38,257 nt of DNA from an uncultured bacterium. Lineage in GTDB: Bacteria > Auribacterota > UBA6266. Made by a program: the position numbers and the translations under genes. Positions 9,204 to 9,442 of this stretch are shown in pieces. The DNA is taken from assembly GCA_965369805.1 (NCBI GenBank), contig CBDURG010000001.1, positions 1-38,257 on the forward strand, written 5' to 3'. Within the stretch, counting starts at the first letter, position 1. Every line of letters begins with the position of its first letter. Below the pieces are notes generated by a model. It was given only the letters and a program-made list of their open reading frames with translations. It was not told the DNA's origin and ran no database searches.

Positions 9204-9264
9204 TTCCTCTTCCTCCTCTTTGAGCTTTTACCTGCTTCCCGCCGCCAATATATGGGATAACTTT

Positions 9265-9312
9265 TAAACAAAAAAAGACAAAGACATCCCTACAGCCTGG
9301 GACATCCTTGTC
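9265..9312 (-). terminator. intrinsic terminator inside the gdhA leader
   Basis: RNA sense GACAAGGAUGUCCC-AGGCUGUA-GGGAUGUCUUUGUC (14 bp including 3 G-U) followed by UUUUUUUGUUU. It lies between the putative promoter and the gdhA start. Confidence 0.55.
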
Positions 9313-9329
9313 TCAATAACAAAATATTC

Positions 9330-9347
9330 TCGCGCACCATTGCGCAA
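9330..9347 (-). promoter_or_regulatory. hexaloop hairpin in the gdhA leader (candidate ANTAR-binding element)
   Basis: RNA sense UUGCGC-AAUGGU-GCGCGA. 6-bp stem, hexaloop with A at position 1 and G at position 4. Confidence 0.35.
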
Positions 9348-9358
9348 TTAGGGATATT

Positions 9359-9388
9359 ACGTTACAAAAAAATAAGAACTTTTGTCAA
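9359..9388 (-). promoter_or_regulatory. putative sigma-70-type promoter of gdhA
   Basis: CTTGACA (-35, 9383-9388), 18 nt spacer, TAACGT (weak -10). The same CTTGACA -35 context occurs upstream of glnA and of the porin-amtB operon. Confidence 0.3.
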
Positions 9389-9413
9389 GATTTTTTAAAA
9401 GGCATCTTATCGC

Positions 9414-9442
9414 TTGACTTAACCACAGCCGCTTTTTAAAAT
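9414..9442 (+). promoter_or_regulatory. putative sigma-70 promoter of nadE
   Basis: TTGACT (9414-9419), 17 nt spacer, TAAAAT (9437-9442). The -10 overlaps the first ATG of the ORF. Confidence 0.35.

Follow-up and report, generated by a model that had tools for sequence, protein, structure and literature searches.

The DNA examined here is a 38,257-nt window (contig CBDURG010000001.1, positions 1 to 38,257) from an uncultured bacterium of the phylum Auribacterota, and our subject is the leader of its gdhA gene, which encodes an NADP-type glutamate dehydrogenase of 445 aa. The assignment comes from Pfam matches to ELFV_dehydrog (E 6e-91) and ELFV_dehydrog_N, and homologues of the protein carry the name NADP-specific glutamate dehydrogenase (GDH). 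A gap of 237 nt separates gdhA from the divergent nadE, which starts at 9441 or 9450 on the plus strand. All coordinates are those of the window, the leader elements are read on the minus strand, and loci of relatives are designated by L-numbers. The features that bear on the leader are the following.

9388-9383, minus strand: -35 box TTGACA, read directly and identical in the closest relative, L161.
9364-9359 or 9359-9354, minus strand: candidate -10 box, TAACGT (18-nt spacer) or TAATAT (23-nt spacer), read directly.
9347-9330, minus strand: hairpin P1, UUGCGC-AAUGGU-GCGCGA, 6 bp, with loop position A1 at 9341 and G4 at 9338.
9329-9313, minus strand: A/U-rich linker of 17 nt, GAAUAUUUUGUUAUUGA.
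9312-9301, minus strand: hairpin P2, GAC-AAGGAU-GUC, with A1 at 9309 and G4 at 9306, from a scan for A1/G4 hexaloops.
9314-9275, minus strand: intrinsic terminator stem-loop of 16 pairs with an 8-nt loop, AGGCUGUA, from a terminator scan.
9276-9266, minus strand: U-tract U7GUUU, read directly and also given by the terminator scan.
9217-9212 and 9203-9201, minus strand: Shine-Dalgarno sequence AGGAGG and TTG start codon, read directly.
9203-7866, minus strand: gdhA.
14278-13514, minus strand: gene for a GAF-ANTAR protein, a one-component regulator and candidate antiterminator (Pfam GAF_2 and ANTAR, PF03861, E 2e-18).

A first-pass annotation of the same DNA had proposed a promoter with TTGACA, one hexaloop hairpin, a terminator followed by U7GUUU, an AGGAGG with a TTG start, and a GAF-ANTAR gene nearby. 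We recovered all of these at the positions above; the terminator, claimed as 14 bp, came out at 16 pairs. The TTG start lines up with the ATG of orthologues, and a spacer of about 50 nt separates the U-tract from the AGGAGG. Folding of the 162-nt leader gave P1 and the terminator hairpin as the minimum-energy structure (-45.3 kcal/mol; z = -2.3 against shuffled sequences), in agreement with the terminator scan. Folded alone, P1 has an energy of -8.2 kcal/mol and the terminator -23.1 kcal/mol. As an analogy for the candidate -10 boxes, P1 starts 7 nt past the -10 box in L168 and L170, and sigma-70-like promoters stand immediately 5’ of the motif in these two loci and in L103, L122 and L166.

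The same annotation had found a single convincing hexaloop hairpin, a claim that did not survive the scan that yielded P2. This second hairpin has 3 bp, extends to 5 (GAGAC/GUCCC) if one A.C mismatch is admitted, and folds alone with -1.4 to -2.4 kcal/mol. It lies wholly inside the 5’ arm of the terminator (9314-9299), making the two structures mutually exclusive. The linker formed no stable hairpin when folded. Its mini-hairpin AAUA-UUUUGU-UAUU, already dismissed as non-fitting, was rejected again with 0 kcal/mol and no conservation as a structure.

In the substrates of EutV, NasR and AmiR, the recognition sequence at the 5’ foot of the terminator folds into another small hairpin whose loop has A1 and G4 (PMC3369931); a curated definition of ANTAR targets asks for hexaloops on stems of 3 bp or more, with 2-25 nt between the two hairpins (PMC8164766). 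The gdhA element agrees with this structural definition, with stems of 6 and 3 bp, the loops AAUGGU and AAGGAU, and a 17-nt linker within the 2-25 nt range.

Conservation of the leader in relatives, which had been raised as a point to check along with the stability of its fold, was evident from orthologous loci. P1, P2 and the terminator are kept in gdhA leaders from Auribacterota and Omnitrophota relatives. The gene order nadE<>gdhA-DUF4147-glycosyltransferase-AsmA-PFK is common to L161, with a GdhA 94% identical to that of the window, and to L162, L164 and L165 (85%). Every leader element is retained in L161, with P1 as UUGCAC-AAUGGU-GUGCAG, P2 as GAC-AAAGGU-GUC and a linker of 21 nt; there the P1 pair G9343-C9334 is replaced by A-U, a compensatory change, and all pairs of the terminator are retained through one-sided G.U/A-U exchanges. 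Contigs from cold-seep metagenomes (X1/X2) show the same G-C to A-U replacement, a change of U9346 to C that turns U.G into C-G, the P2 loop AAAGGU, and a U.G to U-A change that keeps the terminator paired. The leaders of L162, L164, L165, L083 and L084 have P1 as CAC-AAAGRC-GUG on a longer, interrupted stem, then a linker of 15-20 nt, P2 as GAC-AAAGAU-GUC, and a terminator. The full order of promoter, P1, linker, P2 and terminator stands directly 5’ of gdhA in other lineages as well (L166, L122, L168 and L170). Linkers of 15-22 nt are found in the related gdhA leaders of L161, L162, L083, L084 and L168.

In a MAFFT alignment of 10 gdhA leaders, 95.2% of the cells were paired, compared with 23-55% in register-slid controls; P2 was 100% paired, five of the six P1 pairs changed on both sides, and A1 and G4 were invariant. 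A separate MAFFT alignment of eight divergent gdhA leaders placed P1 against P2 and was discarded. Three Omnitrophota-type gdhA leaders (L103:8270, L131:3762 and L135:12850) have a P2-like GAC-AAAGGC-GUY and a terminator right after a sigma-70-like promoter and no recognisable P1; these are possible single-hairpin variants of the ANTAR site.

These orthologues bear on the possibility that P2 is a CsrA site affecting termination or stability. The high-affinity consensus of CsrA, obtained by systematic evolution of ligands by exponential enrichment, is RUACARGGAUGU, and the P2 sequence AGACAAGGAUGU matches it at 11 of 12 positions, with the GGA placed in a hairpin loop. The GGA is absent from the P2 loops of the orthologues, which read AAAGGU in L161 and X1/X2 and AAAGAU in L162, L164, L165, L083 and L084, whereas A1 and G4 are invariant, and for this reason CsrA-type control is largely refuted. 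It would also leave unexplained the second hexaloop hairpin with its covarying stems and the link to an ANTAR gene. We regard it as scarcely credible.

We also considered control without a trans-acting protein: a riboswitch that responds to a metabolite, attenuation by a leader peptide, or a terminator that is constitutive and leaky. A terminator in the 5’ leader is common to all attenuators, and the AUG in the P1 loop opens a frame of 16 codons that ends in the terminator loop. This small frame has no Shine-Dalgarno sequence, is shifted by a 4-nt insertion in L161, and is missing from leaders whose loop reads AAAGAC or AAAGGC. The stretch 5’ of the terminator, about 35 nt long, is too short for known aptamers, and an Rfam scan of the leader gave nothing relevant and no family above noise, its sub-threshold match of the terminator hairpin to a plant microRNA precursor being noise. 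Conservation is focused on two loop positions and the closing pairs, as at a protein site, and control of this kind appears very improbable.

The frequency of such structures was compared with chance using a composite motif: P1 had to have 5 or more base pairs and P2 three or more, with 2-22 nt between them; both loops had to read A..G.., and P2 had to pair into a downstream U-tailed stem. This motif occurs four times in the window, compared with 0.095 expected from dinucleotide shuffles, none of 200 of which reached four. The version with GAC...GUY as P2 occurs twice, and in none of 200 shuffles. The composite motif was found 15 times in 1.04 Mb of GAF-ANTAR loci, all on the strand of the regulator (plus). 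The negative control was real DNA, 545 kb in 80 loci retrieved by their GdhA from many other phyla (best 76% identical), and none of these loci contained the motif; GdhA is so conserved and widespread that this retrieval did not lead to close relatives.

The association with the GAF-ANTAR gene is apparent in the window itself, where a nitrogen-assimilation cluster sits upstream of gdhA on the same strand. The GAF-ANTAR gene is the last gene of the glnA-gltBD-ATP-grasp operon and the only ANTAR gene within the 38 kb. The other members of the cluster, with a second candidate target in the glnA leader, are the following.

27815-27063, minus strand: porin-like gene.
27042-25702, minus strand: amt.
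25619-25278, minus strand: glnB.
25151-25109, minus strand: second candidate target, in the glnA leader, with P1 GGUAC-AAAGUU-GUACC, a 14-nt linker and P2 GAC-AAAGGC-GUU.
24994-22886, minus strand: glnA, type III glutamine synthetase (GSIII).
22802-18273, minus strand: gltB.
18280-16859, minus strand: gltD.
16847-14232, minus strand: gene for a PPDK_N-type ATP-grasp protein.

The glnA leader repeats the design of the gdhA leader, with a promoter (TTGACA-17-TAAAAA) 5’ of P1 and a terminator with U7GUUU after P2. We compared these leaders with a regulator set of 80 loci from metagenome-assembled genomes (MAGs), onto each of which the window proteins were mapped. GAF-ANTAR homologues with 58-96% identity over the best segment occur in MAGs labelled Auribacterota, Omnitrophota, Aerophobetes and others. 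The closest locus, L081, has 94% DNA identity over window positions 24222-13514; synteny stops exactly at the ANTAR stop codon, and the gdhA region is absent from that locus. The regulator gene adjoins gdhA in 10 loci (L096, L098, L103, L105, L115, L117, L118, L122, L131 and L135) and nadE in another 10 (L083, L084, L110, L127, L141, L144, L145, L154, L156 and L157), and in other loci it adjoins gltBD, amt-glnB and glnA3.

A recurring RNA motif was found in the regulator loci, consisting of P1 nnnAC-ANNGNN-GUnnn, a short linker and P2 GAC-AAAGGC-GUY; the P2 loop, together with the 3’ arm of P2, pairs with a ...RACGCC further downstream, which a U-tract follows. In short, AC-ANNGNN-GU appears twice, followed by a terminator, 5’ of gdhA, nadE, gltBD, amt-glnB and glnA genes and of the regulator gene. 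We built three covariance models in this analysis (R1, R2 and R3). Model R1, made from 11 motif sites and none from the window, found the glnA leader of the window with 35.5 bits (E = 4e-6), and over 86 sources it gave 58 hits (E up to 1), of which 57 lie on the same strand as the regulator gene. When the nearest labelled gene downstream was tallied for 53 hits, it was the ANTAR gene in 22, gdhA in five, amt in four, and gltB, glnB, nadE and a porin gene in one each; for the other 18 there was none within 450 nt. The frequency of the ANTAR gene itself in this tally therefore suggests positive autoregulation by antitermination in most relatives. The motif stands 30-390 nt 5’ of the ANTAR gene in L085, L089, L095, L105, L115, L121, L136, L149 and others.

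In the model-fitted alignment of the 58 family hits, 97.6% of the cells were paired (30-48% in register-slid controls), six of eight pairs changed on both sides, and A1 and G4 were invariant, as in the gdhA leaders. The two pairs nearest each loop, A-U and C-G, are almost invariant, recalling the sequence-specific closing pairs of EutV sites (PMC3369931). Linkers in the family range from 1 to 22 nt, with a median of 8.5 nt.

Scoring of the gdhA element itself gave a mixed result. R1 (11.3 bits, E ~1) and R2, which was rebuilt from the 58 R1 hits (14.1 bits, E ~0.6), found only its P2 half and did not pick up the true P1, since they penalise a linker of 17 nt and a G-C at the second position of the P1 stem too heavily. 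For both models P2 was the second-best hit in the window, and it fits the family consensus GAC-AAAGGC-GUY. Model R3, made from four sister-clade gdhA leaders with the window and L161 left out, found as its top hit in the window the full-length element at 9347-9300 (16.8 bits, E ~0.009), ahead of a runner-up with 9.0 bits. On the plus strand (9257-9289), GACAAAGACAUCC, the reverse complement of the terminator 3’ arm, mimics the P2 consensus and gave a weak match of 12.1 bits; it is not a separate site because the match arises from the terminator’s own symmetry.

The DNA shows plainly how this RNA is built, that it is conserved and covaries, and that it is associated in genomes with a GAF-ANTAR gene. 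On these grounds we interpret the gdhA leader as an ANTAR-type dual hexaloop that attenuates transcription and depends on a protein to do so, with a probability of about 0.82. The first-pass annotation had likewise read the leader as a site of ANTAR-type conditional read-through, a proposal now strengthened by P2, by the conserved architecture and by a motif that tracks the regulator.

Several observations count against this interpretation. The failure of R1 and R2 to find P1 is one of them, together with the two properties behind it: at 17 nt the linker is among the longer ones in the family, and the second pair of P1 is G-C where 55 of 57 family sequences have A-U. The gdhA promoter was not called by a promoter scan of the window, its -10 box being weak or ambiguous. 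A search of RNA sequencing runs found the sequence in no RNA run, only in cold-seep DNA metagenomes. It is also physiologically unusual for GDH to be switched on together with the glutamine synthetase-glutamate synthase pathway. Induction of Enterococcus faecalis eutP was lost when its linker was extended to 14 nt (PMC3369931).

Further ANTAR proteins may exist elsewhere in the genome, so the leader could be a true ANTAR-type attenuator read by another protein, either a paralogous GAF-ANTAR or a response-regulator ANTAR, with the neighbouring gene serving the glnA-gltBD operon only. Four relatives (L085, L086, L096 and L105) do have two tandem GAF-ANTAR paralogues, and the departures of the gdhA element from the family consensus, in its linker and its second P1 pair, could reflect a different reader or affinity. 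Against this, P2 (GAC-A..G..-GUC) has the family consensus, a gdhA with such a leader adjoins the orthologous GAF-ANTAR gene in L166, L122, L103, L131 and L135, and the window holds a single ANTAR gene in its 38 kb. We consider a reader encoded elsewhere unlikely.

In the attenuator that we propose, transcription would start a few bases 5’ of 9347. By default, the nascent RNA would fold the 16-bp terminator (9314-9275), followed by the U-tract, and the polymerase would halt about 60 nt before the TTG, leaving gdhA off. An active antiterminator would bind both A1/G4 hexaloops, that of P1 (9347-9330) and that of the weak P2 (9312-9301). Since P2 uses bases of the terminator 5’ arm, its stabilisation would block the terminator and allow read-through into gdhA. 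The folding energies (-1.4 to -2.4 kcal/mol for P2 vs -23.1 kcal/mol for the terminator) point to termination as the default and therefore to a need for protein to switch. The antiterminator would most likely be a dimer of the GAF-ANTAR protein (14278-13514); its binding, the direction of regulation and the ligand are what we infer from the sequence.

The ANTAR part of the regulator matches the Rv1626, EutV-type, NasR and AmiR chains, and the nearest solved relatives of its GAF domain by sequence are PtsP (enzyme I-Ntr; 3trc and 3ci6) and the NifA-like Nlh1 and Nlh2 of Aquifex. GAF domains of NifA bind 2-oxoglutarate. The GAF domain of enzyme I-Ntr binds glutamine (PMC4848567). It is plausible from these similarities that the PtsP/NifA-like GAF domain senses nitrogen status, with either glutamine or 2-oxoglutarate as the signal.

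The proposed attenuator resembles the targets of EutV (E. faecalis eutP/G/S/A), NasR (Klebsiella nasF) and AmiR (Pseudomonas amiE) in its tandem A1/G4 hexaloop hairpins (PMC3369931). As in those systems, the second hairpin draws on bases at the 5’ foot of an intrinsic terminator, transcription would terminate by default and the protein would stabilise the antiterminator, an ANTAR-domain gene lies nearby, and the regulated gene belongs to nitrogen metabolism. It differs from them in its regulator, a one-component protein with a GAF sensor in place of a receiver, pseudo-receiver or NIT domain, in its linker of 17 nt vs 5-12 nt in the eut leaders (PMC3369931), and in its host, a member of an uncultivated PVC-group phylum (Auribacterota).

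In the GnfK/GnfR system of Geobacter sulfurreducens, which acts by antitermination on nitrogen-fixation genes, an ANTAR protein allows transcription past the terminators in the leaders of nifH, glnK and amtB (PMC2995071). The GnfR recognition sequence, CAGGCAANGGCGCC, contains a GGC-AANGGC-GCC hexaloop over a terminator and is very like the GAC-AAAGGC-GUY found here; unlike the protein proposed here, GnfR is a phosphorylated response regulator (PMC2995071). Geobacter gdhA is not an ANTAR target and is instead repressed or activated at a sigma-54 promoter by GnfM (PMC2995071). Multi-operon nitrogen regulons with several attenuators per genome, like the one proposed here, have been predicted for Desulfotomaculum acetoxidans, D. 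reducens and Pelobacter carbinolicus, covering amt, glnB, glutamate synthase and glutamine synthetase (PMC3369931). The supplementary target tables of that study contain no occurrence of ‘glutamate dehydrogenase’ and do not list gdhA (PMC3369931). Earlier predictions concern Firmicutes and Deltaproteobacteria (PMC3369931) and Actinobacteria (PMC8164766), and none names gdhA or a GAF-ANTAR reader; the actinobacterial ANTAR RNAs, unlike the attenuator proposed here, act mostly on translation (PMC8164766). According to PMC3369931, PMC7496416 and a 2025 review (PMC12591593), no GAF-ANTAR protein has been characterised.

As a mechanism, ANTAR antitermination is already established for the control of nitrogen genes. 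What is new is gdhA as a predicted ANTAR target, conserved across several lineages, a putative regulon in uncultivated PVC-group phyla (Auribacterota and Omnitrophota), and a GAF-ANTAR protein as its likely reader. To our knowledge, nothing is known of nitrogen regulation in Auribacterota and Omnitrophota. The GAF-ANTAR family probably controls glnA (25151-25109) and porin-amt-glnB in this organism, as well as gltBD, nadE and its own gene in relatives. This wider regulon, in candidate phyla, is of greater interest than the gdhA element alone. An RNA site has been defined and can be paired with a protein and a candidate class of ligand; all three are testable in vitro without cultivation, and AC-ANNGNN-GU twice with a terminator is a motif that can be used for annotating nitrogen regulons in such MAGs.

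A broader proposal, to which we give slightly less than even odds, is that in Auribacterota, Omnitrophota and Aerophobetes the GAF-ANTAR protein serves as a one-component master regulator of nitrogen genes. If so, the protein would sense glutamine or 2-oxoglutarate directly, and AC-ANNGNN-GU dual hexaloops would switch on gdhA, glnA, gltBD, porin-amt-glnB, nadE and the regulator gene. A ligand class and a regulon could then be assigned to a GAF-ANTAR protein for the first time, and control at the RNA level would replace DNA-binding control of the NtrC, GlnR or TnrA type across entire candidate phyla. The long-linker gdhA sites and the single-hairpin ones (L103, L131 and L135) might then set a graded order of induction.

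In the leader of porin-amt-glnB (27816-28100, minus strand), three terminator-like hairpins come after a promoter (TTGACA-17-TATTGT), and there are weak ANTAR-type units such as UGC-AAUGAG-GCG and GGAU-AAUGAA-GUCC (9.6-12.6 bits with R2). This leader may be a multi-step attenuator. An AGGAC-AAUGAA-GUCCU unit also stands 5’ of the porin-amt-glnB genes of L151.

The other gene at the gdhA intergenic region, nadE, appears to be leaderless (9414-9452, plus strand), with TTGACT, 17 nt, TAAAAT, 7 nt and an ATG at 9450 (MKI...) without a Shine-Dalgarno sequence; the ATG given by the open reading frame (ORF) finder, at 9441, overlaps the -10 box. The nadE of L162 has the same layout, TTGACG-17-TAGAAT-7-ATG. 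The -35 boxes of nadE and gdhA stand back to back, 25 nt apart. As nadE appears leaderless, we ruled it out as a second target in the nadE/gdhA intergenic region of the window.

A repeat of about 56 nt is present as inverted copies at 13457-13512, just 3’ of the ANTAR gene, and at 32347-32405, near a truncated radC-like gene, with a further copy in L081 at 20338-20396. The window also contains a group II intron at 28854-30745 on the minus strand (Rfam RF02005, 87 bits; RF00029, 61 bits), whose reverse-transcriptase ORF lies at 30272-28935.

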